From: Synergistales bacterium
GTDB lineage: Bacteria; Synergistota; Synergistia; Synergistales; Aminithiophilaceae
Length of the DNA stretch: 64,000 nucleotides
Reading direction: 5' to 3'
Assembly (NCBI GenBank): GCA_018433595.1
Contig: JAHDQY010000014.1
Location: 2,793-66,792 of the forward strand
The notes beneath the pieces were generated by a model. That model was not told the origin of the DNA, ran no database searches, and saw nothing but the letters and a program-made list of their open reading frames with translations. How positions within the stretch are numbered: position 1 is the stretch's first letter; the number at the start of each line of letters is the position of its first letter. Made by a program: the position numbers and the translations under genes. Shown here piece by piece: positions 9,459 to 50,536 of this stretch.

Positions 9459-10703
9459 ATGACGCCAGCGCCCTCGATGAAGAAAATCGATCCCGCCTTG
9501 TCCCACCTGCTTTATTCCCTTCTCGTGACAGCCTACTTCCTTTCCTTCTTCTTCCGCGTCTCGGCCTCGGTCGTCCTGCCTCAGGAGGCCTCCCGGCTGG
9601 GGCTGTCGGCCTCCCTGGCCGGCTTCATCTCCAGCCTCTACTACTACGCCTACGCCGTGACCCAGCCTCTCTGCGGCATCCTCCACGACCGTTTCGGCCC
9701 CTTGCGGATCGTCACCTTCGGCATGGCTCTGGCCGGGTTGGGAGAGATCCTTTACGTCCTTTCGCCGACAGCCCTATCCCTCGGCCTCTGGCGGCTCCTG
9801 ACAGGGCTGGGGCTGGCACCGATGTTTTCAGGAGCCCTGCTCTTCCAGTCTCAGGCCTTTCCAATGGAGCGTTACCCCTTCTATGCCGGGCTCACCATCG
9901 CCGCCGGCAACTTCGGAGCCGTCGTCTCCGTAGGCCCCCTGGGCTTCGCCCTGGAGCGATGGGGCAAAGAAGGGGTCTTCTCCGCACTGGCCCTCTTCAG
10001 CTTCGGCCTGGCCGCCCTGATCTTTCTGTTCCGCAACAGCGGGCCCGCCCAAGAAACGGCGGAGAAGGGAACCTTCTCCGCCGTTCAGCAGCTGAAAGAG
10101 GCGGGAAAAGCCATCGCCTGCTCTCCCCGCCTACGGGCCATAACGGTTCTCTGGAGTCTTCTGATCAGCGCCCTGCTGACTTTTCAGGGACTCTGGGCCG
10201 TCGCCTGGTATGAGGCGGCCTTCAACGTCCCCCTCAAGGCGGCGAGAGACCAGGCGACTCTCATCGGCGTCGGCGTCATGATCGGGACCCTCCTGGGCAG
10301 CCGCATTGAGGGAAAGCGAAGAACGGCCGTCCTCAAAAAAGGATATCTTGTGACGGGGGCGTTCTGGCTCCTCCTTCTGGCGGCGACCGCCCCGGGCCGC
10401 TTCCTCTTCCTGGCGGGAGCGACGGGCTTCCTGCTGGGAGTCGCTTCGGGCGTTTTCATCGTCCACTGTGCCTCGGCCCTCAACGAAACGGCGCCTCCGA
10501 CGAAACGCGGCGCCGTTCTGGGAGTGGCCAACATGGTCATCTTCTTCGGCGTCATCGCCTTCCAGTGGGGGACGGGGAGCCTCATCGGCCTCTTCGAAAC
10601 CGCACCGGGACGATACGACGCCACAGGCTTCCTTGTCGCCTTCGGCGTGACGACGGCGCTCTTCTGGGCTGGAACGCTTCTTTTCCCTTCATTGAAGGAA
10701 TAA
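9459..10703 (+). CDS. MFS transporter
   Basis: 414 aa with 12 predicted TM segments and an MFS-like 'GILHDRFGPLRIV' loop motif between TM2 and TM3. GGAGG RBS. Confidence 0.7.
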   Translation: MTPAPSMKKIDPALSHLLYSLLVTAYFLSFFFRVSASVVLPQEASRLGLSASLAGFISSLYYYAYAVTQPLCGILHDRFGPLRIVTFGMALAGLGEILYVLSPTALSLGLWRLLTGLGLAPMFSGALLFQSQAFPMERYPFYAGLTIAAGNFGAVVSVGPLGFALERWGKEGVFSALALFSFGLAALIFLFRNSGPAQETAEKGTFSAVQQLKEAGKAIACSPRLRAITVLWSLLISALLTFQGLWAVAWYEAAFNVPLKAARDQATLIGVGVMIGTLLGSRIEGKRRTAVLKKGYLVTGAFWLLLLAATAPGRFLFLAGATGFLLGVASGVFIVHCASALNETAPPTKRGAVLGVANMVIFFGVIAFQWGTGSLIGLFETAPGRYDATGFLVAFGVTTALFWAGTLLFPSLKE

Positions 10704-10742
10704 ATTCCGAACATGCAACCAGGACAGGAAAGTGAGCGTGTC

Positions 10743-12725: not shown

Positions 12726-13356
12726 TCACACCATTGTCAGAGAGGGATTACGACTGATTTTGAGCCGCCAGTCGGGTCTTGACATCATCGCCGAGGTCTC
12801 TGACGGAGCTCAGGCTCTCGAAAAAACGAAGGAGCTTGAACCCGACGTTGTCGTCATGGATGTCGTCATGCACGGGATGGATGGAATCACCGCCACAAGA
12901 AGAATCAAATCCATCTGTCCGGAAACACAGGTCGTCGCTTTGTCGATGTACGCCGACAAAAACTTCATCAACGAGATGTTGAAAGCCGGGGCTTCGGCCT
13001 TCCTGCTCAAGGACTGCGCATCGACGGAGCTCATTGAAGCCATCAACGCCGTGAAGGAGGGCACTCTCTATCTCGGCCCCAGCGTTTCGGGCATTGTCGC
13101 CAGGATGTACGTCGATTCCATCGGGGGGGTTGAAGCGGCCGGCGAAAAGGACACTCTTTCCGACCGGGAGATGGAAATTCTCAAACTGCTTGCCGAAGGA
13201 AAAACAAATGGCGAAATCGCCCTTGAACTGCATGTCAGCATCAAAACCATCGGCTCTCACAGGAGGAACATTCTCCACAAATTAGGCCTTCGCAATATCG
13301 TCGAACTGACGAAATATGCCCTTGCCAAAGGAATCATACCGACTATTTCTTCTTGA
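12703..13356 (+). CDS. NarL/FixJ (LuxR-type HTH) response regulator
   Basis: 'MKILLADDHTIVREGL...DVVVMDVVMHGMDG' receiver domain and 'LSDREMEILKLLAEGKTNGEIALELHVSIKTIGSHRRNILHKLG' GerE HTH. The ATG at 12703 overlaps the kinase 3' end by 23 nt. Confidence 0.85.
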   Translation: MKILLADDHTIVREGLRLILSRQSGLDIIAEVSDGAQALEKTKELEPDVVVMDVVMHGMDGITATRRIKSICPETQVVALSMYADKNFINEMLKAGASAFLLKDCASTELIEAINAVKEGTLYLGPSVSGIVARMYVDSIGGVEAAGEKDTLSDREMEILKLLAEGKTNGEIALELHVSIKTIGSHRRNILHKLGLRNIVELTKYALAKGIIPTISS

Positions 13357-13400
13357 TTAAAACAACCACAAACCAACATAAGGCAGGCTTATATTCATAC

Positions 13401-13449
13401 GGTAAGCAAAAAGGGAAGCGGTCGCTTCCCTTTTTGCTTACCGGTTTTC
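13401..13449 (+). terminator. rho-independent terminator after the response regulator
   Basis: 20-bp perfect stem GGTAAGCAAAAAGGGAAGCG-gt-CGCTTCCCTTTTTGCTTACC followed by GGTTTT. Confidence 0.75.
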
Positions 13450-13563
13450 AGTGAATAAGGCAACCTCCCGCTGTATCTTTCCTCCTTTGCCTGATTGAAG
13501 GAGTCCAAAAGACCGAGTAGTCTGATAACAAAACACCACCTCCCGAGGAAAGGGGGAAGCAAA

Positions 13564-13644
13564 ATGACAATCAGTAGTTTAACCTTGTTCGCATTACCTT
13601 TGTTTATTTCTCTTGCTCTTGCATTGATATATTTCCTTAAATGA
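13564..13644 (+). CDS. 26-aa hydrophobic micro-protein upstream of the symporter (not in the ORF track)
   Basis: Hand translation gives MTISSLTLFALPLFISLALALIYFLK*. GGGGGAAG lies 5 nt upstream of the ATG. The stop is 13 nt before the symporter ATG. Confidence 0.45.
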   Translation: MTISSLTLFALPLFISLALALIYFLK

Positions 13645-13657
13645 GAGGGGTACAAAA

Positions 13658-15124
13658 ATGCTTATTAACTACATGGTTTTCGGATCATATTTATTCTTGC
13701 TGGTTGCCATTGGCTATCTATCTTACAGAAAAACAACATCTTACGCAGATTTTAGCCTAGCAGGGAGAAGTAATAATAAGTGGATCACTGCTTTGGCTGC
13801 CGAATCTTCAGATATGAGCGGATGGCTTCTTCTAGGATTGCCAGGTATGGCATTTGCAAGCGGATTTGGGGCTATTTGGGTTATTATAGGAATTTTATCA
13901 GGAACTATTTTTAACTGGGTTGTCGTTGCAAATAAATTAAGAACGGCAACGGAACATTACAATGCTTATACCCTTACTGAGTTTTTTGAGAAGCGCTTAA
14001 AAGATTTTAATGGTAATATAGGGTTTATAGCTGCCATAGTAATTGTTATTTTTATGATAATTAACGCTTCTGCTGAAATAATTGGCAGTGGCAAGCTGTT
14101 AAATATAGCTTTTGGAGTAGATTACAAAACTGGAGTTGTTTTAGGTTTAATAATTGTCGTTGTTTATACCTACCTTGGAGGTTTTCTCGCTATAAGCTGG
14201 AGCAATCTAATTCAGGGTAGTATTATGTTTCTTGCTCTCATATTTGTTCCAATTGTGGGTTTTTATCAAATTTCCGGAAGCGACTGGTTATCTAAGATAT
14301 CTGTTGAATCTCCTGGGTTTTTTACCTTTTTTGAGGGAACTACAGGTTTTTGGCCAAGGGTTGCATTGATACTTGGTGGCATCGGGATTGGAATAGGCTA
14401 TCCTGGGCAACCTCATATTTTAACTAGTTTTATGGCAATCAAAGATCCAAAAGAAGTAAAAGACTCTACTCTTATAGCTGTTTTCTGGGTCGCGATCTCG
14501 ACATATGGAGCCGTTCTGGTTGGCATTATCGGTAGAGCTATTTTCCTTGAAATAGGTGATCCTGAGCAGATTTTCCTAGCCCTTACCGGTGAAGTTTTCC
14601 CCGCCTATACGATCGGACTTTTTGCAGCTTCCGTAATGGCCGCCATCCTTTCTTCAGTAAGCGCCTACTTCCTTGTAGCTGCTGCGTCTTACGCCTCTAA
14701 TATTTATAAACGCTTCAAAAAAGTCAAAAACGACGATGCCCTTGTCAAAATCGAGCGCTTTGCTATTGTGGTTATCGCTTTGGCCGCCTTTCTGATGTCC
14801 ATCTCTGGAGGCATCGTCTTCAAGGTCGCCCTCTACGCATGGGGAGGATTAGCCGCCTGTTTCGGACCTCTCGTCATCCTAAGCCTTTATTGGAAGAACC
14901 TGAACCGTAAGGGTGCCATTTGGGGGATGGTTGTAGGAATGGTCACCATCATAGGATGGTATAATCTAGGGCTTTCCAACTACCTTTATGAACTTCTTCC
15001 AGGATTTGCTTTTAGCATGATAACAATGATATTGATCAGTCTCGCCACAGGTGGTGCCGATGCTAATGTCAAAAATGAATTTTTGGCATATAAAAAGGCT
15101 TTAGGTGAGGCAAACCATGTCTAG
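13658..15124 (+). CDS. sodium:solute symporter family (SSF) transporter, PutP/PanF-like
   Basis: 488 aa with about 13 TM segments. The N-terminus 'YRKTTSYADFSLAGRSNNKWITALAAESSDMSGWLLLGLPG' is typical of SSF. The 5' two thirds are AT-rich. Confidence 0.8.
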   Translation: MLINYMVFGSYLFLLVAIGYLSYRKTTSYADFSLAGRSNNKWITALAAESSDMSGWLLLGLPGMAFASGFGAIWVIIGILSGTIFNWVVVANKLRTATEHYNAYTLTEFFEKRLKDFNGNIGFIAAIVIVIFMIINASAEIIGSGKLLNIAFGVDYKTGVVLGLIIVVVYTYLGGFLAISWSNLIQGSIMFLALIFVPIVGFYQISGSDWLSKISVESPGFFTFFEGTTGFWPRVALILGGIGIGIGYPGQPHILTSFMAIKDPKEVKDSTLIAVFWVAISTYGAVLVGIIGRAIFLEIGDPEQIFLALTGEVFPAYTIGLFAASVMAAILSSVSAYFLVAAASYASNIYKRFKKVKNDDALVKIERFAIVVIALAAFLMSISGGIVFKVALYAWGGLAACFGPLVILSLYWKNLNRKGAIWGMVVGMVTIIGWYNLGLSNYLYELLPGFAFSMITMILISLATGGADANVKNEFLAYKKALGEANHV

Positions 15125-40268: not shown

Positions 40269-41429
40269 TTAAACGACCATCAGGTCCTTGAACTTTTTCC
40301 CCTGGGCGTAGCGTCTCCAGTGAAAATCGGAAATGTCCAGATCCGACGATCCGCGGATGATCATCTGAGCGACGAGCTCGCCGGCGACGGCGCCGAACAT
40401 GAAGCCACGGCAGCCGGAGACGTTGAGCCAGAGACCCTTGATCTCGTCGGTCTCCCCGATGCAGGGCTGGAGATCGGGCGTGAGGTCGTACATGCCTGAC
40501 CACTGATGGGTGATGCCGATGTTTCTGGTCCGGGGGAGGACCTTCAACAGCACCTGGGCCGTTCGTTCAAGGAAGCCCCAGGAGTTTCCCATGACCTCGG
40601 GATCATGGTCGGCCTTGGTGTAGGCGTTCGGGCCGCATCCGGCGATGATCGTTCCGTTGGGGCGTTGCTGGATGTAGTAGTCTCCTACGAAGCTCATGAG
40701 CATGGTGGGACAGACGTCGAAGTCGACGGCTTCCGTGATGAGGGCTTCGTGGCGTTCTCCGACGACGGGGAAATCGATTCCGGCCATGTCGCCGATATGG
40801 CGGTTCCAGGCCCCGGCGGCGCTGACCACAACGGGGGCATCAATCTCGCCCCGGCTGGTCACCACACCTTTGATCCGCCCGCCGGCCACCTTCAGGCCGG
40901 TGACCTCCGTGAACTTCTGGAATTTGACGCCGAGGCGCTTGGCCGCCTCCTGGTGGGCGATATTGCAGAGGAAGGGATCGGCCTGGCCGTCCCGTTCGTA
41001 GTAGGAGAAGCCGAGAGCATCGTCGACGTTGATGCCGGGGCAGATCGCCCGGGCCTCGTCGTGATCGATCATCCGGGAGGGAACGCCCATGGAGTTTTGA
41101 AGAGCCACGCTCTCCCGGAAGATCTCGACCTCTTTTTCCGTGTAGCCGATCATGAGGTAGCCGTTCTGATAGAGGCCGATATCCATGCCGGTCTCTTCCT
41201 GCATGTGCTCGAACTTATCGATGCACCGCTTCCCCATTTCGATGTTGAGACGTGATCCCCACTGGGCCCGAAAGGCGGCCCCGCAACGTCCCGTCGCTCC
41301 GGAGGCGACGGTTTTCTTTTCCACGAGCACGACGTTTTTCATGCCGAGCTTGGCCAGATGGTAGGCCGTGCACGTGCCCATCATTCCGCCGCCGATCACG
41401 ACGGCGTCAGCGGTTTTCTGCCATTCCAT
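40269..41429 (-). CDS. FAD-dependent oxidoreductase, DAO family (sarcosine-oxidase-beta / HcnC / proline-dehydrogenase-beta-like)
   Basis: 386 aa. 'DAVVIGGGMMGTCTAYHLAKLG' dinucleotide fold and DAO-family length. Confidence 0.75.
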   Translation of the reverse strand: MEWQKTADAVVIGGGMMGTCTAYHLAKLGMKNVVLVEKKTVASGATGRCGAAFRAQWGSRLNIEMGKRCIDKFEHMQEETGMDIGLYQNGYLMIGYTEKEVEIFRESVALQNSMGVPSRMIDHDEARAICPGINVDDALGFSYYERDGQADPFLCNIAHQEAAKRLGVKFQKFTEVTGLKVAGGRIKGVVTSRGEIDAPVVVSAAGAWNRHIGDMAGIDFPVVGERHEALITEAVDFDVCPTMLMSFVGDYYIQQRPNGTIIAGCGPNAYTKADHDPEVMGNSWGFLERTAQVLLKVLPRTRNIGITHQWSGMYDLTPDLQPCIGETDEIKGLWLNVSGCRGFMFGAVAGELVAQMIIRGSSDLDISDFHWRRYAQGKKFKDLMVV

Positions 41430-41710
41430 TACCGGTCACCGCCTTTCGCCGCAACCTTGACCTTGATGGCCTTCACCGGGGGCCGGAAGGTTCCGCAGGG
41501 GATCTCGGCGATCGGGGTGCCCGTCCTGCGGGAGATCTCCCTGAGGATGATGTCCCGGCAGCCCCGTCCCTGACAGGGGCCCATCCCCACGCGAAGAACC
41601 CTCTTCAGCTCATCGAAGGTGTCGTAACCCTTGTCGATCCACTCCCGGATCTCCTCGAGTTCCACCTCTTCGCAACGGCAGACGACGATATTCTGAGGCT
41701 CTTCAGGCAT
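41429..41710 (-). CDS. BFD-like [2Fe-2S]-binding protein
   Basis: 93 aa. 'VVCRCEEVELEEI ... GMGPCQGRGC' is the C-x-C...C-x2-C BFD-like pattern. Its stop overlaps the next ATG by 1 nt (TAATG). Confidence 0.7.
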   Translation of the reverse strand: MPEEPQNIVVCRCEEVELEEIREWIDKGYDTFDELKRVLRVGMGPCQGRGCRDIILREISRRTGTPIAEIPCGTFRPPVKAIKVKVAAKGGDR

Positions 41711-41712: not shown

Positions 41713-42222
41713 CTACTTCACCACCCTGACGGCGCGGATATCCATGACCCGATCTCTGGGGACAACGACATGGACGACGCGGGTTTTATCTCTCAACGGT
41801 TCCGTGACGTGGAGAACCTTGCCCTTGGCGACGGCTTCGCCGACCCGATTCAGGCAATCCACGGAAGTTCCCTCGACGGGAACGGGGAGCATCTCGAAGG
41901 GAAGCTTCACGAGAGCCTCATCCGCCTCGCCGTAGGTGAGATCCACCACAAAACAGGCCAGCCCGGGGCACTGGGCCACGCACTTGGCGCAGCCGATGCA
42001 TTTTTCGTAGTCGATGGCGGGCGTATCGTTGATGTCCTTGAAGGGCCTGATCGCGCCGGTGGGGCAACTGGAGGCGCAGGGGTTGCAAGGGATCCTCTGG
42101 GGGCATTCGATGACGACGAGTCCGTTTTTCTTCTTTTCCCAGAGTTCCCGGGGAGGAAGCTCCGCACCGGGACAACGTTCCGTCAAGACTCCGCTGTTGA
42201 AAAGAAGCTCCTTTTCCGTCAT
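41713..42222 (-). CDS. 4Fe-4S ferredoxin-domain subunit
   Basis: 169 aa from the ATG at 42222 (GAGGAGG RBS). 'CPQRIPCNPCASSCP' and 'CIGCAKCVAQCP' are cluster motifs. The track ORF is over-extended. Confidence 0.7.
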   Translation of the reverse strand: MTEKELLFNSGVLTERCPGAELPPRELWEKKKNGLVVIECPQRIPCNPCASSCPTGAIRPFKDINDTPAIDYEKCIGCAKCVAQCPGLACFVVDLTYGEADEALVKLPFEMLPVPVEGTSVDCLNRVGEAVAKGKVLHVTEPLRDKTRVVHVVVPRDRVMDIRAVRVVK

Positions 42223-42224: not shown

Positions 42225-43340
42225 TTATGCCTCCTCGCCCCAGTCGCAGCCGCAGTTCGAACATTTTTCGAGGCCGCTCCGGATCTTTGCCCCCACCTCG
42301 CCGGCCCGCAGGTTGGAGAGTCTCTGCCAGAGCTCCAGATATCGCTCCTGGAAGGCCTCTCCCTGGATGCGGCCCAGGGCCCTGGCGATGCTGATCCCGG
42401 AAATCCTTCCCTCGACCATTGCGGCTGAAGCCTCCTCGATTCCCGAGGCGTCGCCGGCGACCCAGAAGTTCGGATTGGTCGTCTGCATGAAGGCGTTCCG
42501 TTGAGGAACGTGTCCGCAAAGCTCCGGGACGTAGGTCATCTTGCAGCCGGCCTGCCAGAGGATTTCCGCCGTCGGGATCAGCCCGACGGCCATGCAGATG
42601 GTATCGCAGTCGATCTTCCTGATCTCCTCCGTCGGGCGGCCCTTTTCATCGACCCGCTGGATATGGGCCCCTGCGACCACGCCCTTTTCCACGATGGCGT
42701 CGGTGATAGTGTGCCTGAGATAAATGGGAACGCCCAGCCGTCTCACCTTGGCCGCATGAACCCAGTAGCCGCCGACTTTCGGCATGAACTCGACGATCCC
42801 GGCGATCTCGACGCCGGCCTGCATGAGCTGGTAGCTGACGATAAGACCGATATTCCCCGCTCCGATCATCAGGACCCGCTCTCCGGGAAAGACCCCGTAG
42901 ACGTTCATCAGGGTCTGGATGGCCCCGGCTCCGTAAACGCCGGGGGCGTCGTTGTTGGGGAAGGGCAGGAGCCTCTCCATCGCGCCGGTGGCGACGATCG
43001 TCTTCTTGGGCCTCAGCCGGATGTACTCTTCCTCGTCTTTGACCAGAGCGACGACTCCGTCATCGGGATAGAAGCCGTTGGCCGTGGTGTTGGACAGGAC
43101 CGTGACGCGGTCTTTGGCCGCCTCCAGCTCCTCGAAGAGGATTTTCGCGATTTTGATCCCTCGGGTCCCGGCATACTCCGCCTCGGATCCGAAGAATTTG
43201 TGAGTCTGCTTCACGAGCTGCCCGCCCAGGGCGAGATCGCTGTCGACCAGAGTCACGTCGCAGCCGTGTGAGGCGGCTTCCACCGCCGCTGAAAGCCCCG
43301 CAGGGCCTCCGCCGATGACAAGAACCTCAGTTTCACGCAA
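42225..43340 (-). CDS. NAD(P)/FAD-dependent pyridine-nucleotide-disulfide-type oxidoreductase subunit (HcnB / OoxA / PDH-alpha-like)
   Basis: 'EVLVIGGGPAGLSAAVEAASHG' and a second 'RVLMIGAGNIGLIVSYQL' dinucleotide fold. The proposed TTG start at 43340 lies 8 nt after GGAAGG, but the start is uncertain. Confidence 0.7.
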   Translation of the reverse strand: MRETEVLVIGGGPAGLSAAVEAASHGCDVTLVDSDLALGGQLVKQTHKFFGSEAEYAGTRGIKIAKILFEELEAAKDRVTVLSNTTANGFYPDDGVVALVKDEEEYIRLRPKKTIVATGAMERLLPFPNNDAPGVYGAGAIQTLMNVYGVFPGERVLMIGAGNIGLIVSYQLMQAGVEIAGIVEFMPKVGGYWVHAAKVRRLGVPIYLRHTITDAIVEKGVVAGAHIQRVDEKGRPTEEIRKIDCDTICMAVGLIPTAEILWQAGCKMTYVPELCGHVPQRNAFMQTTNPNFWVAGDASGIEEASAAMVEGRISGISIARALGRIQGEAFQERYLELWQRLSNLRAGEVGAKIRSGLEKCSNCGCDWGEEA

Positions 43341-43683
43341 GACCGTCACCTTCCTTTTGCGCTTCGGGCTCGCTCCAGGGAACAGAGCCGTTTCCTTTCT
43401 GGCTCTGGACGACCATTCCCGCCTTGAGGGGCGTGACGCAGATGCGAACGTTGGGAACCCCGTCAACGGTCATAAAACAGGAAGAACACTTGCCGATGGC
43501 ACAGAAAAAGCCGCGGGGGCGCTTCGTCTTAGGCGTCTCCCTGTAGATCCTGATCTTGTTGGCATGAAGGGCCGAAGCGATCGGCTCCCCCTCGTAGCCC
43601 TCCAGACTCCTGCCGTCGAAGCTGAACGTCACTTTCCTTGCATGATGAAACTCCAGGATCGGGTGTTCCTTGATCAAGTTCAT
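43333..43683 (-). CDS. small [2Fe-2S] subunit (Fer2_4; HcnA / sarcosine-oxidase-alpha N-terminal-like)
   Basis: 116 aa from the ATG at 43683 (GGAGGAGGG upstream). 'FFCAIGKCSSCFMTVDGVPNVRIC' is the Cys pattern. Confidence 0.65.
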   Translation of the reverse strand: MNLIKEHPILEFHHARKVTFSFDGRSLEGYEGEPIASALHANKIRIYRETPKTKRPRGFFCAIGKCSSCFMTVDGVPNVRICVTPLKAGMVVQSQKGNGSVPWSEPEAQKEGDGLA

Positions 43684-43719
43684 CCAGAGACCCTCCTCCA
43701 TGAGTGATGAAAGGGACAG

Positions 43720-45879
43720 CTAGAGTTGCTGATACTTCAGACAGAGATCCATAACGTCGGGATCGTCAAGTCCGAGACGGGTGAGGGTTTCCGGCTTGGG
43801 AACCCCTTCGTCCGTCCAGCCCCGCCGCTCATACATGGCTGTCATGAGATCCTCGTAATAGCCTTCCCGGTACTTGCGGAGCTTGGCGATCTTCTTTTCC
43901 AGTTTCATCCCGTCGGTGTCGAGCTCCGTCTTCTCTCTCAGGCACTCGTCGTAGTAGACCTCGCGATGGAGGTACTCGTCAGGGGTGACGGGCCCCATGG
44001 CGCGGTAGGGGCCTCGGTCGTGAGCTCTGCCGACGAGGCCCATCTTGATGTTGATCATGCGCTGCAGGTTGTAGATCCTCTCGGATTGCTCGAGCATTCC
44101 GGCCTCGCCCAGAGGTCTTCCAGTAACGGCCGTGTAGATCCGGATGTAATTGTCGACGTGTTCGGGAATGCGCTCGGGGTGCTTCGTCATCCCGTTGTCG
44201 GCCGGCTGGATGTCGGCCCAGGGCATCTTGCAGATCCCCTGGAGGCCGAACCAGGTGCGCAGAGTGCTCAGGTACCAGACGGCCTCCACTTTCTCTTCGA
44301 TGGTGTTGAGACGGCCGCTCATGACCTCCATCCCCATCATCCAGGTCTCGTCGTGCTGAGCGCCCTTGTTGGCCATGGCGTAGCCGATCTGCTGGGTCGT
44401 GCACTCTTTGGTGACGTACTCGGAGTATTCGAGGCCCTTGGCCTCCATCCCGAAATCCCGGAGCTCTTCGGGATCGGCGCCGTACTTCCTGGCAAAATAG
44501 GCTTTCATTCGTCGGATGCCCATACCGAAGATTTTGCCGAAGCCTTCGCCCCGGGCAAGCCGGTGCAGCAGTTCAAGCTGGGCGTCGCTATTGCCGAAGC
44601 GCAGCTCGAGGCCGCCGGTGCGTTCCCTGTCGAGGATGCCGCGCTCGTAGCACTCCATGACGAAGGCGCAGCATGTGCCGAAGGAGATCGTATCCAGTCC
44701 GTAGGTGTCGCAGTAGAAGTTGCACTCGGCGATGACATAGGGGTCGAAAATGCCGCAGTTGCTTCCCACGGCGCCCAGAGTTTCGTACTCGGGGCCATCC
44801 ACGCAGACCCGTTTTCCTCTGTAGGGGCCGGTCTTGAGCTCGAAGCCGTCGATGGCCTTGGCGCACTGAAGAGAGCAGCCGTACCAGCAGCCGTCGGGTG
44901 CCTTTTGAGTAAAGAGTTTCTCCCAAACGGGCGAGTCGATCTTGTGATATTCAGGGTGGCAAGTGTACTTGAAATTATTGACAGGCAACAGATTAAAGCC
45001 ATTGCAGACATGTACGAGGAATGTCGTTCCGTTGCGGCGCATGTTGACCTGCTTGCGATCCAGGGAGAAAACTTCATCATGAACGATCCGTCCCAAGCGC
45101 GCAACCGTTTCAGGGTCATCGGCATTGACAAGATCACCGCGAACGCCCATGGATTTAACAACGATAGCTTTAATTTTTTTGTCTCTTAAGACCGTGCCGA
45201 TACCGCCTCTTCCTGCCTGCTTGAGACGCACGCAGCCGCGCCTGAGATCGTAGAAGGAGAAGTTCAGCATCCCGAAGAGGGCGTTTTCGGCACCAGAGCC
45301 TGTCGAAATGACTGAAACGGCCCGTTTTTCCGTTTCGTTACGGCCGAAGGCCTGCGTGATCTCCTCGGCCAAGAGGTGGCTGTCCTGGACCTCGGGAAGA
45401 AAGTCCCTGACGATGAGAACTTCCTCCCGGTCTCCGTCGATGACGAGCATGACATCGTCGTCGGCCTTGCCTCGGATTTCCAGGGCGTCCCATCCGGCAC
45501 ACTTGAGCAGAGGGCCGAAGTAGCCGCCGACGTTGCTGTCGATGGCCGTTCCCGTCATCGGGGATAAAGAGACGACCATCGATTTGCCGATGCCCGGATA
45601 GGAGGTGACGCCTGCGAGAGGCCCGGGCGAAACGATGATCTCGTTCTCGGGATCGTCCCATCGGGTCCCCTCTTTGACGGCATCCCAAAGGAACTTGATG
45701 CCGAAGCCGCGGCCGCCGATGTACTTCCGCTTCATCTCTTCGGAGACATCCTTCGAGATGATGCCGTTGGAGGAGAGATCGACGAAGAGCGTCCTGCTCG
45801 TGTAGCCTTTTTCGATGGTCGCCCGCCTGTACGGGTAACGGGCGAGGAGATCGTCTCCGAAGGCGATGTCGAGATTCAT
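43720..45879 (-). CDS. aldehyde:ferredoxin oxidoreductase (AOR) family tungsto/molybdopterin enzyme
   Basis: About 719 aa. The AFOR_N-like N-terminus is 'YTSRTLFVDLSSNGIISKDVSEEMKRKYIGGRGFGIKFLWD'. 'CNFYCDTYGLDTISFG' and 'DETWMMG' are AOR family segments. The start is uncertain: the 45879 ATG is preferred, but 45903 and 45924 are possible. Confidence 0.8.
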   Translation of the reverse strand: MNLDIAFGDDLLARYPYRRATIEKGYTSRTLFVDLSSNGIISKDVSEEMKRKYIGGRGFGIKFLWDAVKEGTRWDDPENEIIVSPGPLAGVTSYPGIGKSMVVSLSPMTGTAIDSNVGGYFGPLLKCAGWDALEIRGKADDDVMLVIDGDREEVLIVRDFLPEVQDSHLLAEEITQAFGRNETEKRAVSVISTGSGAENALFGMLNFSFYDLRRGCVRLKQAGRGGIGTVLRDKKIKAIVVKSMGVRGDLVNADDPETVARLGRIVHDEVFSLDRKQVNMRRNGTTFLVHVCNGFNLLPVNNFKYTCHPEYHKIDSPVWEKLFTQKAPDGCWYGCSLQCAKAIDGFELKTGPYRGKRVCVDGPEYETLGAVGSNCGIFDPYVIAECNFYCDTYGLDTISFGTCCAFVMECYERGILDRERTGGLELRFGNSDAQLELLHRLARGEGFGKIFGMGIRRMKAYFARKYGADPEELRDFGMEAKGLEYSEYVTKECTTQQIGYAMANKGAQHDETWMMGMEVMSGRLNTIEEKVEAVWYLSTLRTWFGLQGICKMPWADIQPADNGMTKHPERIPEHVDNYIRIYTAVTGRPLGEAGMLEQSERIYNLQRMINIKMGLVGRAHDRGPYRAMGPVTPDEYLHREVYYDECLREKTELDTDGMKLEKKIAKLRKYREGYYEDLMTAMYERRGWTDEGVPKPETLTRLGLDDPDVMDLCLKYQQL

Positions 45880-45976
45880 CGGCACTTCTTGATTTTGTGG
45901 CATCTGGCTGAAGGTACCCCCCAAAGATTTCGTATTGGAAAAATCCGTGAAACCGGGCCGGATTTCTCTTCGTCGG

Positions 45977-46022
45977 TTCCATCAAGAGAGCGGACCCCCA
46001 GGGCGACGCTCTCTTGATGGAA
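45977..46022 (-). other. 16-bp perfect stem-loop between the symporter and AOR genes
   Basis: TTCCATCAAGAGAGCG-(14 nt)-CGCTCTCTTGATGGAA with no adjacent U tract. A second small hairpin (AAATCCG...CGGATTT + T5) follows on the minus strand. Confidence 0.6.
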
Positions 46023-46063
46023 CGCTTCACTTCAACACCCGATTCACAGAGCTCTCTTGAGGT

Positions 46064-47536
46064 TCAGGCTGTGCGGAGCTCAGCCGCTTTCGTCTCGCCG
46101 TACCTGCTGCCCAGGTAAGCGGCGATCACGGCGGCGGCAAACCCGACGATCCGGGCGCTCACCACGGCCTCCATCGGCGAATAGTTCCAGATCATGGTGG
46201 TGATGAAGCCCACGACCATGGTCCATACGGCACCGTAGGCGTTGAACTTTTTCCAGAAAAGAGTCATCAGGGTCAGAGCGGAGAAGGAGTTGCCCAGTCC
46301 GGCCCAGGCGAAGGCGACGATGGCGTAGACGAGCCCCTCCGGAAGGAGAAAAACCAGCGCAAAGGCGGCCAGTCCGCCGATCAGCGTCACCCAGCGGGAG
46401 ATCCAGAGACTCTGCTTGCCGGTCAGATTCGCACCCTTGAGGAAAAAGGGCTTGATGATGTCTTCTGAGAGTTCCGAGGCCGTCAGGATGAGCATCGAGT
46501 CGGCCGTGGAAAGCATGGCGGCGATGGCCGACGTGACAAAGAGGGCACCCAGGAAGGGGGGGAAGACCTTCATCACGACCATGGGCATGACCGTCTCCGC
46601 ATCGGTCAGCTGATCGGGGCCGAAAATGGCTAGCCCGGCGAGGCCCAGAAGAATGGCGCCGGCATAGCCGCAGATCGTCCAGGCGATGCCAATGTTCCGG
46701 GCCTGCTTCGCCGCCTTGTCGTTTTCGATGGACATGAAGCGGACCGTAAGGTGAGGGCATCCCCCGAGGTAGGCGAAAAACCAGGAGAAGGCGTTGCCGA
46801 TCATCAGGCCTGCGGCGAACCCCTTGGCCCCCCCGGTCCAGCTGCCATAGGATCCCCCAGCCATCTTGAGAGCGGCCCCGATCGAAGGGGCGTAGACGTC
46901 GGGATGGCTACCGATATATTTGACGGCGAAGATGGGACCGAGAATGAGGGTGGCGATCATGAGGAGGGACTGGACGCAGTCGGTGTAGACGACGCTCTGG
47001 TAACCGCCGTAGAAGGTGTAGGGGATGATGATGCAGACCGTGACGATGATGCCTGTTATCGGCTTGATCCCGAACATGGCGTTCAGGGTCTTGCCACCGC
47101 CGATGAGCTGCGCCTCGACATAAAAGGTGAAGAGAAAGACGATGATCATGGCTCCGATAAATCGGATGGCGGCGTTGAGCTGGGGATGCTTCTTGGCCGC
47201 CCAGTCGACATAGGTGGAGGCGTCGACATCCTCCGCTTGGTCGCGCATTTTCCTGGCGATGACCCACCAGGCCACGATATTGCCGGCGGCCAGCCCTAAG
47301 GCGACCCACACCGTCACAAGTCCCGCTGCGTAGGCGTATCCGGGAAAACCTACGAGGCACCAGGCCGACTCGCCAGTAGCGCGCTCGGAAAGCGCCGCGG
47401 CCCAGCCGGGGATCTTGCGTCCACCCATCGTGTAATCGGAATCGGATTTGACCTTTCGCCCCTGGAACATTCCCACCCCGAGAAGGAGTAGAAGGTATCC
47501 GACCAGAACTAATAATCGTATCGTGGATTCCTGCAT
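46064..47536 (-). CDS. sodium:solute symporter, PutP-like (proline by context)
   Basis: 490 aa from the ATG at 47536 (GAGGGGGG RBS). 'SDYTMGGRKIPGWAAALSERATGESAWCLVGFPGYAY' is a typical SSF N-terminus. The 71-codon upstream extension in the track is rejected. Confidence 0.8.
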   Translation of the reverse strand: MQESTIRLLVLVGYLLLLLGVGMFQGRKVKSDSDYTMGGRKIPGWAAALSERATGESAWCLVGFPGYAYAAGLVTVWVALGLAAGNIVAWWVIARKMRDQAEDVDASTYVDWAAKKHPQLNAAIRFIGAMIIVFLFTFYVEAQLIGGGKTLNAMFGIKPITGIIVTVCIIIPYTFYGGYQSVVYTDCVQSLLMIATLILGPIFAVKYIGSHPDVYAPSIGAALKMAGGSYGSWTGGAKGFAAGLMIGNAFSWFFAYLGGCPHLTVRFMSIENDKAAKQARNIGIAWTICGYAGAILLGLAGLAIFGPDQLTDAETVMPMVVMKVFPPFLGALFVTSAIAAMLSTADSMLILTASELSEDIIKPFFLKGANLTGKQSLWISRWVTLIGGLAAFALVFLLPEGLVYAIVAFAWAGLGNSFSALTLMTLFWKKFNAYGAVWTMVVGFITTMIWNYSPMEAVVSARIVGFAAAVIAAYLGSRYGETKAAELRTA

Positions 47537-47816
47537 TAAGGTTCCCCCCTCATCATTGTAAAGGAAGTGCGACAATTCGAAAGGGCAGCTCATTCTAGAC
47601 GTTGTTGGGTGATCATGTCGTCTGAAGGTCTTGGGACAACCGTATTCTCTGGAAGGGATGTCCCCAGGGAACATGGTCGAACGGGTGTTTTGTGAACCCC
47701 TGCTTTGACAAAGAGCCGCTTTTCTTTGGCGCGCGACAAGGTGGTGCACCAGCCTGTGAATCCTCCTAAAGATTCTTTGTCCTCACGACCTCCCTTCCTT
47801 GAAAACTCAATTAGTG

Positions 47817-47844
47817 AATGAAAGATCTTGATCTAATAGAAGGC
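47817..47844 (-). promoter_or_regulatory. conserved element copy 1 (core AATGAAAGATCTT) in the putP-like leader
   Basis: A 13-nt perfect match, and 25/31 nt overall, to 49332-49362. It contains the palindrome AAGATCTT and lies about +25 to +52 from the predicted TSS. Confidence 0.55.
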
Positions 47845-47875: not shown

Positions 47876-47903
47876 AGTATATATGGCGAACTTGTTTTGT
47901 CAA
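47876..47903 (-). promoter_or_regulatory. sigma70-like promoter TTGACA-16-TATACT for the putP-like gene
   Basis: The minus strand has the -35 at 47898-47903 and the -10 at 47876-47881. This implies a 5' leader of about 330 nt. Confidence 0.5.
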
Positions 47904-48072: not shown

Positions 48073-48117
48073 AAAAAAATAAAGGAGAGGATCTCGTCGA
48101 TCCGCGAGATCCTCTCC
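48073..48117 (-). terminator. rho-independent terminator of the cyclodeaminase-family gene
   Basis: 13-bp perfect stem GGAGAGGATCTCG/CGAGATCCTCTCC with an 8-nt loop, followed by TTTATTTTTTT on the minus strand. Confidence 0.8.
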
Positions 48118-48135
48118 CTGGAGGATCTTGAGGTT

Positions 48136-49260
48136 CTACCTCCAGTAGGCTTCTTCGAAGAAGACGTATTCCGTACCGAGGCCCATCTCCAGAGCCTTCT
48201 CATAAAGCGTGTAGCCCCAGGCCAGGTCATGGACGGGCATGCCGCCCGTGGGGAAGAGGATGATCTCGTCGTCGTCCTTCCGCCCGGGGTCGTCGCCGTT
48301 GACGACATCGCCAAGGTTGCGGATTTTCGATTCGTCGTAGAGTCCGTCGTTGACGTATCGGAGGAGGAAGAAGGAAGGCGCTACGACGCCGACGGCGTCG
48401 ATTCCCTGGGGATGCTCCTTGCCGTCGAGAATGAAGGCCTGATGCATCTTCCAGTTGTCGGCGATGACGGTGTTCTCCGAGAAGCAGTCCAGGTCCATTT
48501 CGGCGGCTCCGGTGAAGGTGACGAGACAGCCTTTCTTGAGCCACTCCTTCTCGATGCGGGGAAAGGTCGCTCCGGAGGTGGCGATGGTGACGATGTCGGC
48601 GGGGCAGACGGCGGCCTCGATAGAGGGAGCCCAGTGAACCTTGACGCCGACCTTGTCGGCCATCTCCTTGGCGAAGGAGTCGAATTTGTCCTTGTTGATG
48701 TCGTAGAGGTAGGCCTCCTCGACGGTGGGACATCCGGCCTTGATGGCCAACAGGCAGGCGCGGTTGATGACGCCGCCGCCGATGACGCCCACCGTCTTGG
48801 CGCCCTTCCGGGCCAGATGGCGGGCTGCGACGCCGGGGACAGCGCCGGTGCGCATGGCGCTGATGAGGTTTCCTGAGAGAATGGCGAAGGGGACACCCGT
48901 ATCGGAATCGTTGAGGATGGTCGTCAGAATCGAGCGAGGGAGCCCCTTTTTCCAGTTCTGGGCGTTGGATCCGTACCACTTCTCGCCGCAGATCTTGTAG
49001 CGGCCGCCCAGGTAGGCGATCATGGCCATGAAACGACGGTCGGGACCGGTGACGGGCATCCCGGGGAAGCGCTCCGTATCGGGGAAGTAGATCATCTGTC
49101 CGTGTTCGTTCTCGAGCGGCCCTCCCATAAGGTAATCGCCCTTGCCCAGGAGACTGAAAACTTCCTCGATGACGTCGACGCACTTGGGCATATCGAGAAC
49201 GCCTGCCTTCACCAGATCCGACTGGGACAGAAGTAGTGTCTTGACGCTTGTATCAGCCAT
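48136..49260 (-). CDS. ornithine cyclodeaminase / mu-crystallin family protein
   Basis: 374 aa. 'AMRTGAVPGVAARHLARKGAKTVGVIGGGVINRACL' Rossmann segment and family-typical length. Substrate not determinable from the sequence. Confidence 0.7.
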   Translation of the reverse strand: MADTSVKTLLLSQSDLVKAGVLDMPKCVDVIEEVFSLLGKGDYLMGGPLENEHGQMIYFPDTERFPGMPVTGPDRRFMAMIAYLGGRYKICGEKWYGSNAQNWKKGLPRSILTTILNDSDTGVPFAILSGNLISAMRTGAVPGVAARHLARKGAKTVGVIGGGVINRACLLAIKAGCPTVEEAYLYDINKDKFDSFAKEMADKVGVKVHWAPSIEAAVCPADIVTIATSGATFPRIEKEWLKKGCLVTFTGAAEMDLDCFSENTVIADNWKMHQAFILDGKEHPQGIDAVGVVAPSFFLLRYVNDGLYDESKIRNLGDVVNGDDPGRKDDDEIILFPTGGMPVHDLAWGYTLYEKALEMGLGTEYVFFEEAYWR

Positions 49261-49334
49261 GGCAAACCCTCCTTGTAGAGATAGATGGGAACGGCAAATT
49301 CACAAAAGGTGCGGAGAAGAACCGCAACATCGTT

Positions 49335-49362
49335 AATGAAAGATCTTTATCACATAGCAGCC
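49335..49362 (-). promoter_or_regulatory. conserved element copy 2 (core AATGAAAGATCTT) in the cyclodeaminase leader
   Basis: See 47817-47844. It lies about +20 to +47 from the predicted TSS of the promoter at 49388-49416. Confidence 0.55.
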
Positions 49363-49416: not shown

Positions 49417-49645
49417 GCATTTCATTGATCTTGTTTTTTGAAAGAGTTGTTTCTCGGATGGCCTTTCGGATGGAACCACAAGGGAGCGTCTTTCTCCCGG
49501 GGTTGGACCGCTTCAGCTCGTTGCCGCGGAATGGGGAGAGCCTGGCCTTTTCTTTGCGCGATGTGGCATAATGCTAAGGCATTTAAAGTATGAAAAATGT
49601 CGGTTTCTCGAGGCCGATGGAGACATCAGGAGAGCAGGTGACCCC

Positions 49646-50536
49646 ATGAACGTCAACAAGCAGGTCGATGGTGATCTTTTCAGCCGCCTCCGCCGGGGGG
49701 CGGAAGCCTTTCCGAGCCAGCAGCAGCTTGTCTGCGGCTACATCATCGGCCACTACCAGGAGGTGGCCTTCATGACCGTCGAGGAGCTGGGCCAGGCCAG
49801 TGGCGTCAGCCCCGCAACGGTGGTCCGTACGGTGGCCCGTCTCGGTTACGAGAGCTACCACGATCTTCTTCAGGAGATTCAGGAGATGCTCATCTCTACC
49901 AGGACCTCCCTCTGGTGGCAGATCGAGAAATCCTGGGACTACCGGGAAAACCCCGAGTTCGAATCGGGAGGGCGTGTCCTCTCCGAGGTGGCCCGCCAGA
50001 ACGTCGAGAGCATCCAACGCTCCCTTTCCCCTCTGCTGCTTGAGAACTTCGCCAAGGCCTGCGACATCCTCAAGGGGGCGCGGAAGCTGGCTATTCTGGG
50101 CCTGCGCTCTTCCCGTGGTGCCGCCCTTATCTGCTACTCCCTTTTCAACCAGTTTCTCGACAACGTCCTCCTCCCCGATCATGCCGGTTCCGACGAGATG
50201 TACGCCGATCTCGTCGATCTCGATGGGAACGACGCCCTCCTGGCCATTTCTGTCGGAGGCCCCCACTTCGCCTGCCGGACCCTCGAGGCCGTCGACTTCG
50301 TTCATGGCCAGGGAGTGCCCGTCGTTCTCATCACCACCGACATGGCCTGTCCCGCAGCCCCCTCGGCCGATGTTCTCCTTCACGTCGTCGCCACTGAAGG
50401 GCATTACTCTCTCGTGCCGGTCCTCACCGTTGTCGATGCCCTCGTCGTGGAGCTGGGTCACCACTATCGCGATAGCGCTATCAAGAAACTGCGGACCCTG
50501 GAAAAGCTTCTCGTCGATAAGAAGATCACCCTTTGA
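49646..50536 (+). CDS. MurR/RpiR-family transcriptional regulator (HTH_6 + SIS domain)
   Basis: 'LVCGYIIGHYQEVAFMTVEELGQASGVSPATVVRTVARLGYESYHDL' HTH and a C-terminal SIS-like 'LAILGLRSSRGAA...ALLAISVGG'. The ATG at 49646 has an AGGAGAG RBS. Confidence 0.75.
   Translation: MNVNKQVDGDLFSRLRRGAEAFPSQQQLVCGYIIGHYQEVAFMTVEELGQASGVSPATVVRTVARLGYESYHDLLQEIQEMLISTRTSLWWQIEKSWDYRENPEFESGGRVLSEVARQNVESIQRSLSPLLLENFAKACDILKGARKLAILGLRSSRGAALICYSLFNQFLDNVLLPDHAGSDEMYADLVDLDGNDALLAISVGGPHFACRTLEAVDFVHGQGVPVVLITTDMACPAAPSADVLLHVVATEGHYSLVPVLTVVDALVVELGHHYRDSAIKKLRTLEKLLVDKKITL

Follow-up and report, generated by a model that had tools for sequence, protein, structure and literature searches.

In the window, a stretch of 64,000 nucleotides from an amino-acid-fermenting Synergistales bacterium (contig JAHDQY010000014.1), the reverse-strand gene at 43720–45879 encodes a protein of 719 aa from the aldehyde:ferredoxin oxidoreductase (AOR) family. 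We propose, with a probability of roughly 0.6, that this enzyme is a glutamate-5-semialdehyde:ferredoxin oxidoreductase which completes the conversion of ornithine or proline to glutamate. The proposal is a comparative inference, without biochemistry or transcript data. In the textbook route from proline to glutamate the work is done by PutA, or by ProDH together with an NAD-dependent P5C dehydrogenase (P5CDH). An earlier note on this DNA had suggested that the AOR oxidises glutamate semialdehyde, and this idea is supported by its adjacency to genes for a proline dehydrogenase (PDH), by genome-wide co-occurrence with PDH in two independent lineages, by a swap with P5CDH at the same operon position, and by its intact residues.

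The AOR gene and its active site

The assignment to the tungsten/molybdopterin, [4Fe-4S] AOR family rests on Pfam, PDB matches, conserved residues, and comparative evidence. The open reading frame (43720–45924, reverse strand) matches AFOR_N (PF02730, 164.5 bits) and AFOR_C (PF01314, 332.4 bits), and has no Pfam match to Aldedh; what is proposed is a functional replacement and not membership of the ALDH family. The ATG at 45879, which gives 719 aa, is also the start in public gene calls (the representative of the 100% cluster is 719 aa); an alternative ATG at 45903, with GGGGGG 12 nt upstream of it, would give 727 aa. The Pfam matches and coordinates confirm the earlier description of an AOR-family gene of roughly 719 aa lying between the symporter and the dehydrogenase subunits on the same strand. 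The gene is under purifying selection, with a dN/dS of 0.097 against an 86% identical homologue.

A PDB sequence search gives matches to AOR, FOR, and WOR5 (164–197 bits). Residues C331, C335, C339, and C550 align with the [4Fe-4S] ligands C288, C291, C295, and C494 of PfAOR, spaced as C-x3-C-x3-C rather than C-x2-C-x3-C. Likewise, T285, E366, Y488, and H509 align with the PfAOR second-shell residues T243, E313, Y427, and H448, which are those listed for aldehyde-oxidising AORs (PMC13328260), and both sets are invariant in 25 homologues. Judged by these residues the active site is of the aldehyde-oxidising type, and catalytic activity itself is inferred. The first pterin-phosphate motif, D-x-x-G-L-(C/D), is invariant and present as D391-TYGLD396; in the second, G545 occupies the position of PfAOR D489, a change common to the whole clade of ~720 aa proteins. 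A bis-pyranopterin carrying W or Mo is likewise an inference, there being no metal analysis. MoeA and ThiF/ThiS-like genes are among those found next to clade members, as are genes for an ABC transporter, possibly of the tungstate/molybdate type, whose binding protein is SBP_bac_11.

Orthology to YdhV is ruled out (NF007354, 112 bits against a cut-off of 868, over the N-terminus only), as is orthology to BamB, where 4Z3W matches residues 28–243 only. These two clades are marked by an extra Cys metal ligand and by loss of the second-shell residues, which the window protein keeps.

FOR of P. furiosus (1B25/1B4N) is like the window AOR in belonging to the AOR/WOR family and in having one [4Fe-4S] cluster, a pterin, and the four second-shell residues. 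Its lowest Km is that for glutaric dialdehyde, and it has been crystallised with glutarate, which is why a C5 semialdehyde is suspected to be its natural substrate (PMC12096430). However, FOR matches at 161.8 bits only, over residues 25–536, is about 100 aa shorter than the window protein, and differs from it in the spacing of the cluster cysteines and in the second pterin motif, which in the window AOR lacks the Asp. No gene context links FOR to proline, and its role has yet to be defined. The remark in the earlier note that its author knew of no AOR assigned to this step agrees with the searchable papers, where a P5C or glutamate-semialdehyde role for the AOR family was not found, with the caveat that C5 semi- or dialdehydes (glutaric) have long been suspected as substrates of archaeal FOR (PMC12096430).

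The closest of the solved relatives are the AORs sensu stricto (1AOR of P. furiosus; the bacterial 9G7J and 8C0Z AorB, 185–197 bits), which have the same catalytic residues and convert aldehydes to acids with ferredoxin or polyferredoxin. These are broad-range detoxifiers of about 605–616 aa, that of A. aromaticum working with AorA polyferredoxin and AorC FAD subunits, whereas the window AOR clade has no polyferredoxin gene and is in an operon with proline dehydrogenase instead. Within the five classes (I–V) of WOR set out by Putumbaka et al. (2026, PMC13328260), the window enzyme would be Class I, a large subunit alone, and Class II, a large subunit with polyferredoxin, would take in the Bacillota paralogues and the one on C33. 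That classification names a physiological role for only five of 92 clades, and makes no mention of proline, ornithine, or semialdehydes.

The proline dehydrogenase genes and the layout of the locus

The five genes 3' of the AOR gene, all on the reverse strand, appear to encode a multi-subunit L-proline dehydrogenase of the Pyrococcus type, whose conversion of L-proline to P5C is inferred from the sequence. The first encodes a Fer2_4 [2Fe-2S] subunit of 116 aa resembling the N-terminus of SoxA (43333–43683; Pfam, 109.3 bits), with GGAGGAGGG as its Shine-Dalgarno sequence. It is followed by a PDH alpha-like FAD/NAD(P)-binding subunit of about 374 aa (42225–43349; Pyr_redox_2, Pfam, 118.4 bits), which scores 170 bits on the soxA family model and has PDB matches to SoxA alpha and PH1363 (1Y56_A). 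Then come a 4Fe-4S dicluster ferredoxin-like subunit of 169 aa (Fer4; 41713–42222; Pfam Fer4_7), whose start, with GAGGAGG, overlaps the preceding stop codon and whose homologue at another locus is also 169 aa, and a BFD-like [2Fe-2S] or SO_alpha_A3 small subunit of 93 aa (41429–41710; Pfam). The last is a PDH beta-like catalytic flavoprotein of the DAO family (40269–41429, 386 aa; Pfam DAO, 228.5 bits), with its best PDB match being 1Y56_B, the beta subunit of P. horikoshii L-proline dehydrogenase (227.5 bits, the next match being 142.8).

The heteromeric dye-linked L-proline dehydrogenases of Thermococcales, PDH1/PDH2 (1Y56), share the DAO beta, the Pyr_redox_2 alpha, and small Fe-S subunits with this set; the difference is that the window alpha subunit is split, with the separate Fer2_4 gene taking the place of PH1363 residues 1–108. 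In T. litoralis, PDH clusters with an OCD-like (LhpI) gene and a proline racemase gene, an OCD-family clustering that is also seen in the window, and in the portion of that source available no AOR-family gene is mentioned with the archaeal PDH clusters and the fate of P5C is undefined (PMC4141209). A TIGR01236 P5CDH lies directly 3' of orthologous Bacillota PDH operons, which gives indirect support only for the L-proline activity of the PDH.

From the AOR gene through the five PDH genes, neighbours either overlap or lie no more than 36 nt apart. The two gaps given in the earlier note are correct, with 36 nt (43684–43719) 3' of the AOR gene and 184 nt (45880–46063) between it and the symporter. 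The latter spacer contains a strong hairpin with a 17 bp stem and no U tract (45976–46023, reverse strand), read from the sequence, then a weaker one that has a T5 run. The predicted fold of the spacer is -71.6 kcal/mol (z = -4.07), and the strong hairpin is possibly an attenuating or stabilising element. No Rfam family reaches its gathering score in the leaders or in this spacer, where there are only three weak sub-threshold matches. A sigma-70-like promoter, TTGACA-16-TATACT with 11/12 matches, is predicted for the symporter-AOR-PDH unit at 47876–47903 (reverse strand), and none is predicted within the spacer. Given this structured spacer without a predicted promoter, the extent of the transcription unit is uncertain, and co-transcription of the AOR gene with its neighbours is inferred in the absence of transcript data.

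The gene 5' of the AOR gene (46064–47536, reverse strand) encodes a PutP-like SSF Na+/solute symporter of 490 aa from the ATG at 47536, the reading frame being open to 47749; homologues at two other loci are 492 and 493 aa. It matches Pfam SSF (213 bits), and its best NCBIfam model is PutP (TIGR02121, 319.6 bits), under the equivalog cut-off of 515.5.

Further 5' is a gene of the OCD/mu-crystallin family (48136–49260, reverse strand, 374 aa; Pfam OCD_Mu_crystall, 205.9 bits), with an AAGGAGG Shine-Dalgarno sequence. A predicted intrinsic terminator 3' of it (48082–48119, reverse strand), with a 15 bp stem and T run, would make it a transcription unit of its own. It exceeds the cut-off of NCBIfam PRK06199 (396 against 362 bits), a model whose function is annotation only, and its best PDB match is 6T3E, a pyrroline-2-carboxylate reductase (135.7 bits). 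There is no equivalog-level match to characterised OCDs (EC 4.3.1.12), the OCD models scoring 42–140 bits, under their cut-offs, and P. putida OCD (1U7H) matches at 42 bits. That this gene produces proline from ornithine is an assumption and not established, its best solved relative being a pyrroline-2-carboxylate reductase; the probable product is L-proline, derived from ornithine or else through the reduction of pyrroline-2-carboxylate. The homologues have only transporter and regulator genes as neighbours, which does not settle the reaction. NCBIfam calls this family "tyramine oxidase subunit B"; no paper behind the name was found in a literature search, and so it has been left out of the evidence.

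Divergent from the OCD-family gene is a gene for an RpiR-family protein (49571–50536, forward strand; HTH_6 and SIS, Pfam), which is the probable regulator of the proline/ornithine locus, and RpiR-type genes also flank AOR-OCD pairs at three other loci. An operator-like motif, identified by a 13-mer match and alignment, is present in the OCD leader (49332–49362), with the core AATGAAAGATCTT on the forward strand, and again in the symporter leader of roughly 340 nt (47814–47844). The exact 13-mer occurs only at 47817–47829 and 49335–49347. This sharing suggests that both leaders may answer to one regulator.

The DAO subunit of the window is only 54% identical to the other copy in the genome (on C58) and no more than 55% identical to that of any relative, which means that its imino-acid substrate may differ. 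It is conceivable, though unlikely, that this paralogous PDH supplies the AOR with a different amino- or oxo-acid semialdehyde to oxidise. Hydroxyproline would give 4-hydroxyglutamate semialdehyde, and pipecolate or lysine would give 2-aminoadipate semialdehyde; a third candidate is 2-oxoglutarate semialdehyde, in which case the AOR would replace LhpG in the oxidative hydroxyproline route. Some PDH-AOR loci have Pro_racemase-family genes beside them, and the available part of PMC4141209 places the best solved relative of the OCD-family protein in hydroxyproline metabolism and has pipecolate as a further substrate of archaeal PDH. At the window locus, however, there is no hydroxyproline epimerase or DHDPS-type deaminase, the genome has a single Pro_racemase gene, which is on a different contig, and the symporter matches PutP best. 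The enzyme that takes the same position in relatives is a glutamate-semialdehyde dehydrogenase equivalog, and just four residues, none of them catalytic, set the OCD-linked AOR clade apart (C493, S538, M552, and A555). As these lie outside the catalytic shell, a change of substrate is neither supported nor excluded by them.

P5C dehydrogenase and the distribution of the AOR clade

The earlier note had pointed out that the locus has no NAD-dependent P5C dehydrogenase, which holds for the locus and also for the whole genome (2.53 Mb, 99.65% complete), where there is no PutA/ProDH (Pro_dh, PF01619) and no match to P5CDH (TIGR01236) at E<=1e-100. A canonical P5C dehydrogenase elsewhere in the genome would have counted against the proposal; it was searched for and none was found. 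Only two Aldedh-family genes are present, one ExaC/BADH-like and one acylating EutE-like. The former scores 334 bits on a P5CDH model with a cut-off of 648, and a generic ExaC-like ALDH could in principle oxidise glutamate semialdehyde. The P5CDH counts given here rest on TIGR01236; P5CDHs of this type score only about 380 bits on NF002852, such that the finding of 0/61 genomes over the NF002852 cut-off is misleading as a sign of P5CDH absence.

Among 61 Synergistales genomes PDH is present in 37, of which 23 are missing P5CDH, and all 23 of these have the AOR clade. The sole PDH-positive genome without the AOR carries P5CDH (Fisher test of AOR with PDH, p = 1e-8, uncorrected for phylogeny). 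In a Tissierellales-like set, also of 61 genomes, the clade is found in 30, all PDH-positive, and in nine of the 30 it is less than 5 kb from PDH alpha, where about 0.1 would be expected by chance. Both AOR and P5CDH are present in 13 PDH-positive Synergistales and 17 Tissierellales-like genomes, which shows that the two are not strictly alternatives.

In genomes G151, G152, and G146 a gene for a TIGR01236 L-glutamate gamma-semialdehyde dehydrogenase (787–813 bits, cut-off 613.6) comes after the orthologous PDH operon, in the same orientation. The DAO subunits of these operons are 66–70% identical to that of locus L029, and at L029 and others an AOR with polyferredoxin stands at the P5CDH position. 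P5CDH (TIGR01236, RocA, or the C-terminal domain of PutA) catalyses the reaction proposed for the AOR, and in these three genomes is encoded at the same operon position, but it has the unrelated fold of the ALDH superfamily, is NAD+-dependent and metal-free, and yields NADH rather than reduced ferredoxin.

The window AOR falls in a clade of nine rows in the tree (SH-aLRT 92–98), every member of which adjoins OCD and/or PDH genes, with gene orders and transporters that vary among members. Seven rows elsewhere in the tree are wrong-strand open reading frames from high-GC DNA, on a long branch, which the residue analysis excludes and which have no effect on the window clade. A recurrence of AOR-PDH adjacency in related genomes had been proposed as a check, and it is indeed seen, as is AOR-OCD adjacency, with rearranged orders in at least two phyla. 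PDH also adjoins other members of the ~720 aa clade, among 48 genome loci viewed in full context and the Synergistales relatives. At those loci prolidase-type M24 peptidases, proline-racemase-family genes, and sigma-54 activators are among the neighbours.

Most of 80 clade loci have only cofactor, tungstate-type ABC transporter, and polyferredoxin genes as neighbours, about 25 Bacteroidota genomes have the clade without any PDH alpha homologue, and one relative, with a genome 97% complete, has an AOR-OCD pair and no PDH-type DAO. Since the tie to PDH is often missing, the ~720 aa clade may be a broad-range aldehyde oxidoreductase. The window AOR could then be a broad-spectrum detoxifier like the AORs sensu stricto, placed in an amino-acid catabolic locus only because such fermentation yields aldehydes generally; characterised AORs have broad substrate ranges (PMC13328260). 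There seems little prospect of this, as the adjacency to PDH and OCD is far over chance and has arisen in several lineages, the Tissierellales-like set has the clade in PDH-positive genomes only, the AOR stands at the P5CDH position in orthologous operons, and a second AOR paralogue with polyferredoxin is already present at another locus of the same genome, on C33.

The proposed route and its direction

On the preferred reading, that the AOR is the glutamate-semialdehyde oxidase, proline would enter through the PutP-like symporter, or come from the OCD-family enzyme out of ornithine or pyrroline-2-carboxylate, and would be converted to P5C by the five-gene flavin and Fe-S proline dehydrogenase. 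P5C would open spontaneously to L-glutamate-5-semialdehyde, which the AOR would oxidise to glutamate, with ferredoxin, or the Fe-S subunits encoded alongside, receiving two low-potential electrons; the substrate, the electron acceptor, and the direction are all inferred. This step would put the AOR in place of the NAD-dependent P5C dehydrogenase that is missing from the genome. The second PDH operon of the genome is followed by genes for a 2-oxoacid:ferredoxin oxidoreductase and a glutamate dehydrogenase, which may take the glutamate further, and [FeFe] hydrogenases, for which there are three genes, may dispose of the reduced ferredoxin.

The reaction might instead run in reverse, with reduced ferredoxin driving the reduction of glutamate to the semialdehyde by the AOR and proline then being made by the PDH complex or by the OCD-like reductase, as ATP-free proline synthesis or an electron sink. 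AORs can reduce unactivated acids once the product is drawn off, and cyclisation and the strongly exergonic reduction of P5C would, by inference, pull the reaction; there is also no ProA-type gene among the Aldedh-family matches of the genome. This is very improbable given the catabolic context, which comprises the uptake symporter, the RpiR regulator with its shared operator, and the prolidase and racemase genes of related loci, as well as the pairing of PDH operons with a catabolic P5CDH in relatives and the linkage of the paralogous PDH to glutamate dehydrogenase and 2-oxoacid oxidoreductase.

If the oxidative assignment is true, strict anaerobes would gain reduced ferredoxin from the second step, and hence H2 or energy from an ion gradient, and the "missing P5C dehydrogenase" gap would be filled in anaerobic amino-acid degraders, here 23/37 PDH-positive Synergistales. 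The tungsten oxidoreductase clade concerned is uncharacterised and very large, with at least 595 loci among species-representative genomes, and part of it would gain a first physiological role. The assignment would also predict a dependence on tungsten of the fermentation of proline, ornithine, and collagen peptides in digesters and gut communities.

The AOR and PDH may even form one wired or electron-confurcating system, an extension that is pure inference as to the coupling and must be considered a long shot. Very low-potential electrons from the semialdehyde and high-potential ones from proline would come together by way of the NAD(P)-binding alpha subunit and the Fer2_4, Fer4, and BFD subunits, reducing NAD+ or making H2. 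The midpoint potentials are about -580 mV for semialdehyde oxidation and about -120 mV for proline dehydrogenation. Such a coupling, if true, would make it understandable that proline is oxidised by a strict fermenter in the first place, and would also explain the loss of polyferredoxin from the OCD-linked AOR clade and the fact that this clade has changes only around its [4Fe-4S] ligand.

Gene content of the locus and the absence of a P5C dehydrogenase

The AOR-family gene (719 aa, 43720-45879, with an alternative start at 45903) is on the reverse strand, in a region of ~58-66% GC, and is preceded on that strand by the OCD/mu-crystallin gene (48136-49260) and an SSF symporter with PutP as its best match (46064-47536, the ORF being open to 47749). 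It is followed by genes for a Fer2_4 protein (43333-43683), a Pyr_redox_2 flavoprotein (42225-43349), a 4Fe-4S dicluster (Fer4) protein (41713-42222), a BFD/SO_alpha_A3 protein (41429-41710), and a DAO-family flavoprotein (40269-41429), all reverse. The gene for an RpiR-type regulator (49571-50536) is oriented divergently to the OCD gene. Gene calls, domain searches, and spacers agree with the AOR coordinates and locus description of the earlier note.

The best solved match of the DAO subunit is 1Y56 chain B, the Pyrococcus horikoshii L-proline dehydrogenase beta subunit (227.5 bits), followed by dimethylglycine dehydrogenase (142.8 bits); for the Pyr_redox_2 subunit the hits are SoxA alpha and PH1363 (1Y56_A). 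By these matches the dehydrogenase is a heteromeric PDH of the Thermococcales type, with a split alpha subunit and additional Fe-S subunits; activity on proline is inferred. In Thermococcus litoralis such PDH genes are described as clustering with proline-racemase-like genes and with an OCD-like gene, the product of which reduces pyrroline-2-carboxylate (PMC4141209). The OCD-family protein here is nearest to the pyrroline-2-carboxylate reductase 6T3E (135.7 bits) and SbnB, with Pseudomonas OCD reaching only 42 bits, and the nearest named homologues of its gene are from Synergistaceae/Synergistales, the group to which the organism most likely belongs. Its reaction is not established, although either candidate activity would give L-proline.

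Whole-genome profile searches of this assembly (2.53 Mb in 72 contigs, 99.65% complete) gave neither a Pro_dh domain nor a TIGR01236 match, and only two Aldedh-family genes: one ExaC/BADH-like, which reaches 334 bits against a P5CDH model whose cut-off is 648, and one acylating and EutE-like. NCBIfam model NF002852 gives TIGR01236-type P5CDHs only ~380 bits against the cut-off of 648, so that, used alone, it would make true P5CDHs look absent. The lack of an NAD-dependent P5CDH that had been noticed at the locus extends, with no TIGR01236 match and two unrelated Aldedh genes, to the whole genome; the Pro_dh, TIGR01236, and Aldedh searches found no canonical P5CDH elsewhere.

A second five-gene PDH operon (contig C58:216386-224104; 4386-12104 of locus L116), of the type widespread in the order, has subunits 54-75% identical to those in the window. 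Directly after it come the genes of a 2-oxoacid:ferredoxin oxidoreductase, with three subunits, and of glutamate dehydrogenase. There are also three [FeFe]-hydrogenase genes. This gene content would therefore encode a route from proline through P5C and glutamate to 2-oxoglutarate and succinyl-CoA, except for the P5C-oxidising step. Because the PDH of the window is a distinct paralogue, a related imino acid substrate (hydroxyproline, pipecolate) cannot be excluded. On contig C39 (~7900-14914, locus L118) another OCD-family gene, which shares 25% identity with that of the window, is grouped with DctP, an IlvD/EDD-family dehydratase, and the only Pro_racemase-family gene of the genome, and close by is a radical-SAM activase-like gene; the group may form a hydroxyproline-type module, for which an aldehyde oxidiser would also be needed.

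Association of AOR with proline dehydrogenase in other genomes

In three genomes (G151, G152, and G146) an ALDH gene comes next, on the same strand, after a PDH operon orthologous to that of locus L029 (DAO 66-70% identical); in G151 (L124) it is ~90 nt downstream. With 787-813 bits (cut-off 613.6), this ALDH is a TIGR01236 equivalog, L-glutamate gamma-semialdehyde dehydrogenase. This lends indirect support, from operon context, to the inference that such PDH complexes make P5C. In L029, L005, L018, L020, L021, L042, and genome G046 the P5CDH position is taken by polyferredoxin-AOR, and therefore the AOR clade can occupy the operon position of P5C dehydrogenase.

The 86%-identical AOR homologue (L084/L085) has the gene order of the window. 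At L086, where AOR is 60% identical, the order is sigma-54 activator, OCD (only 33% identical to that of the window), AOR, and SSF. The 58-60% homologues are paired with OCD and accompanied by RpiR and by TRAP or APC transporters; in L087 a PDH operon is 5 kb upstream. Nine AORs, those of the window and of these homologues, form one clade (SH-aLRT 92-98) in a 107-sequence maximum-likelihood tree; every member is next to OCD and/or PDH genes, and none has an adjoining polyferredoxin gene. The second AOR of the genome (C33:474-3129, L115), which has 50% identity and a 150-aa polyferredoxin encoded ahead of it, groups not with these but with a separate "generic" Synergistales clade.

Across the wider ~720-aa clade, 80 genome loci include 7, all from Bacillota, with a PDH operon directly upstream of polyferredoxin-AOR; the flanking genes there are for prolidase-type M24 peptidases, a proline-racemase-family protein, an SNF transporter, and a sigma-54 activator. 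Among Synergistales, G046 has the order PDH-polyferredoxin-AOR, and in G025 and G033 ProRac-PDH-PDH' adjoins polyferredoxin-AOR. The AOR-PDH adjacency thus recurs in relatives, in shuffled orders, in both Synergistales and Bacillota.

In G033 and G025 (L121, L122, L123) the two adjacent PDH operon types have the orders Fer2_4-PyrRedox-Fer4-BFD-DAO and DAO'-first, and DAO' shares only 34% identity. A proline-racemase-family gene adjoins them, polyferredoxin-AOR is 2-3 kb away, and the two types probably differ in imino-acid substrate. In G046 (contig C27; 10183-12320 of locus L120) the AOR following the PDH-polyferredoxin operon is split between neighbouring frames, one with residues 11-525 and the other with 525-717, which suggests a frameshift or assembly error. 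At locus L112 (G025, contig C1), 5-oxoprolinase-type genes (CT_C_D, CT_A_B, and a third; 1768-4369 of the locus) are upstream of DctPQM, RpiR, and AOR-OCD, a further tie of this pair to glutamate-family compounds.

Scoring PDH as DAO at least 50% identical, 36 of 61 Synergistales genomes have both the AOR clade and PDH, 17 neither, 7 AOR only, and 1 PDH only (Fisher p = 1e-8, uncorrected for phylogeny), and the co-variation is present within several families. TIGR01236 P5CDH is missing from 23 of the 37 PDH-positive genomes, all 23 of which have the AOR clade; the sole PDH-positive genome without AOR, G026, has P5CDH. In 61 Tissierellales-like genomes around G077, all 30 with the AOR clade are PDH-positive, 13 have PDH without AOR, and 18 have neither (p = 2e-7). 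In 9 of the 30, no more than 5 kb separates AOR from PDH alpha, against a chance expectation of ~0.1, and a P5CDH-type ALDH is present in 11 of the 13 PDH-positive AOR-negative genomes versus 17 of the 30 with AOR. The PDH alpha homologue of Fervidicola ferrireducens (G064:C22:33828-34922) has one in-frame TGA, which may be selenocysteine, a pseudogene, or a sequencing error.

The AOR protein and its proposed role

The protein matches AOR, bacterial AOR, WOR5, and FOR structures (164-197 bits, roughly 30% identity) and falls within a distinct and very widespread clade of ~715-725 aa. More than 8000 database proteins match it, and species-representative genomes (Chloroflexota, Bacillota, Bacteroidota, Cloacimonadota, and others) contain at least 595 such loci. 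Profile scores and structure matches rule out orthology to YdhV or BamB. In the HMMER alignment the [4Fe-4S] ligands C331, C335, C339, and C550 (C288, C291, C295, and C494 of the Pyrococcus furiosus AOR) are kept, as are T285, E366, Y488, and H509 (T243, E313, Y427, and H448), the second-shell set that marks aldehyde-oxidising family members (PMC13328260). All are invariant across 25 homologues, and dN/dS is 0.097 against the 86%-identical metagenomic homologue; the gene has stayed intact and under constraint. The OCD-linked clade has no more than four residues of its own (C493, S538, M552, and A555), near Tyr488 and the cluster ligand C550; by inference, these may go with the loss of the polyferredoxin partner and not with a change of substrate.

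The ~720-aa clade is not universally PDH-linked. Its Bacteroidota carriers are without PDH alpha homologues, its usual neighbours are cofactor and transport genes, and many genomes have AOR and P5CDH together. G007 has an AOR-OCD pair without PDH; there, glutamate semialdehyde could conceivably come from ornithine aminotransferase.

The earlier note proposed that AOR acts in the place of P5CDH, as a glutamate-5-semialdehyde:ferredoxin oxidoreductase. Adjacency, co-occurrence, and same-position replacement support this putative P5C-oxidising role, on comparative genomics alone, and it is biochemically untested. In full-text searches no paper was found that assigns this role to an AOR or tungsten enzyme, whether in connection with glutamate semialdehyde, P5C dehydrogenase, or proline dehydrogenase, in keeping with the remark that no such assignment was known. 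The June 2026 WOR classification states a defined role for only 5 of its 92 clades and nowhere uses the words proline, ornithine, or semialdehyde (PMC13328260); the nearest precedent is the suggestion that archaeal FOR acts on glutaric semi- or dialdehyde (PMC12096430).

Transcription signals

AOR and the five genes downstream overlap or have spacers of no more than 36 nt, several with good Shine-Dalgarno sequences. The 184-nt spacer between symporter and AOR, without a family match in an Rfam search, contains a perfect 17-bp hairpin without a U tract (45976-46023) and then a weaker hairpin with T5; the first may serve in processing, in stabilising, or as a partial terminator. The OCD gene has its own strong terminator at 48119-48082, and there is a near-consensus promoter at 47903-47876, upstream of the symporter. 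The leaders of the OCD gene and symporter have an exact 13-nt core in common, AATGAAAGATCTT, containing the palindrome AAGATCTT, inside a 31-nt similar stretch (49332-49362 and 47814-47844, respectively). This would fit one regulator for both units, and the motif is a likely operator of the divergent RpiR regulator.
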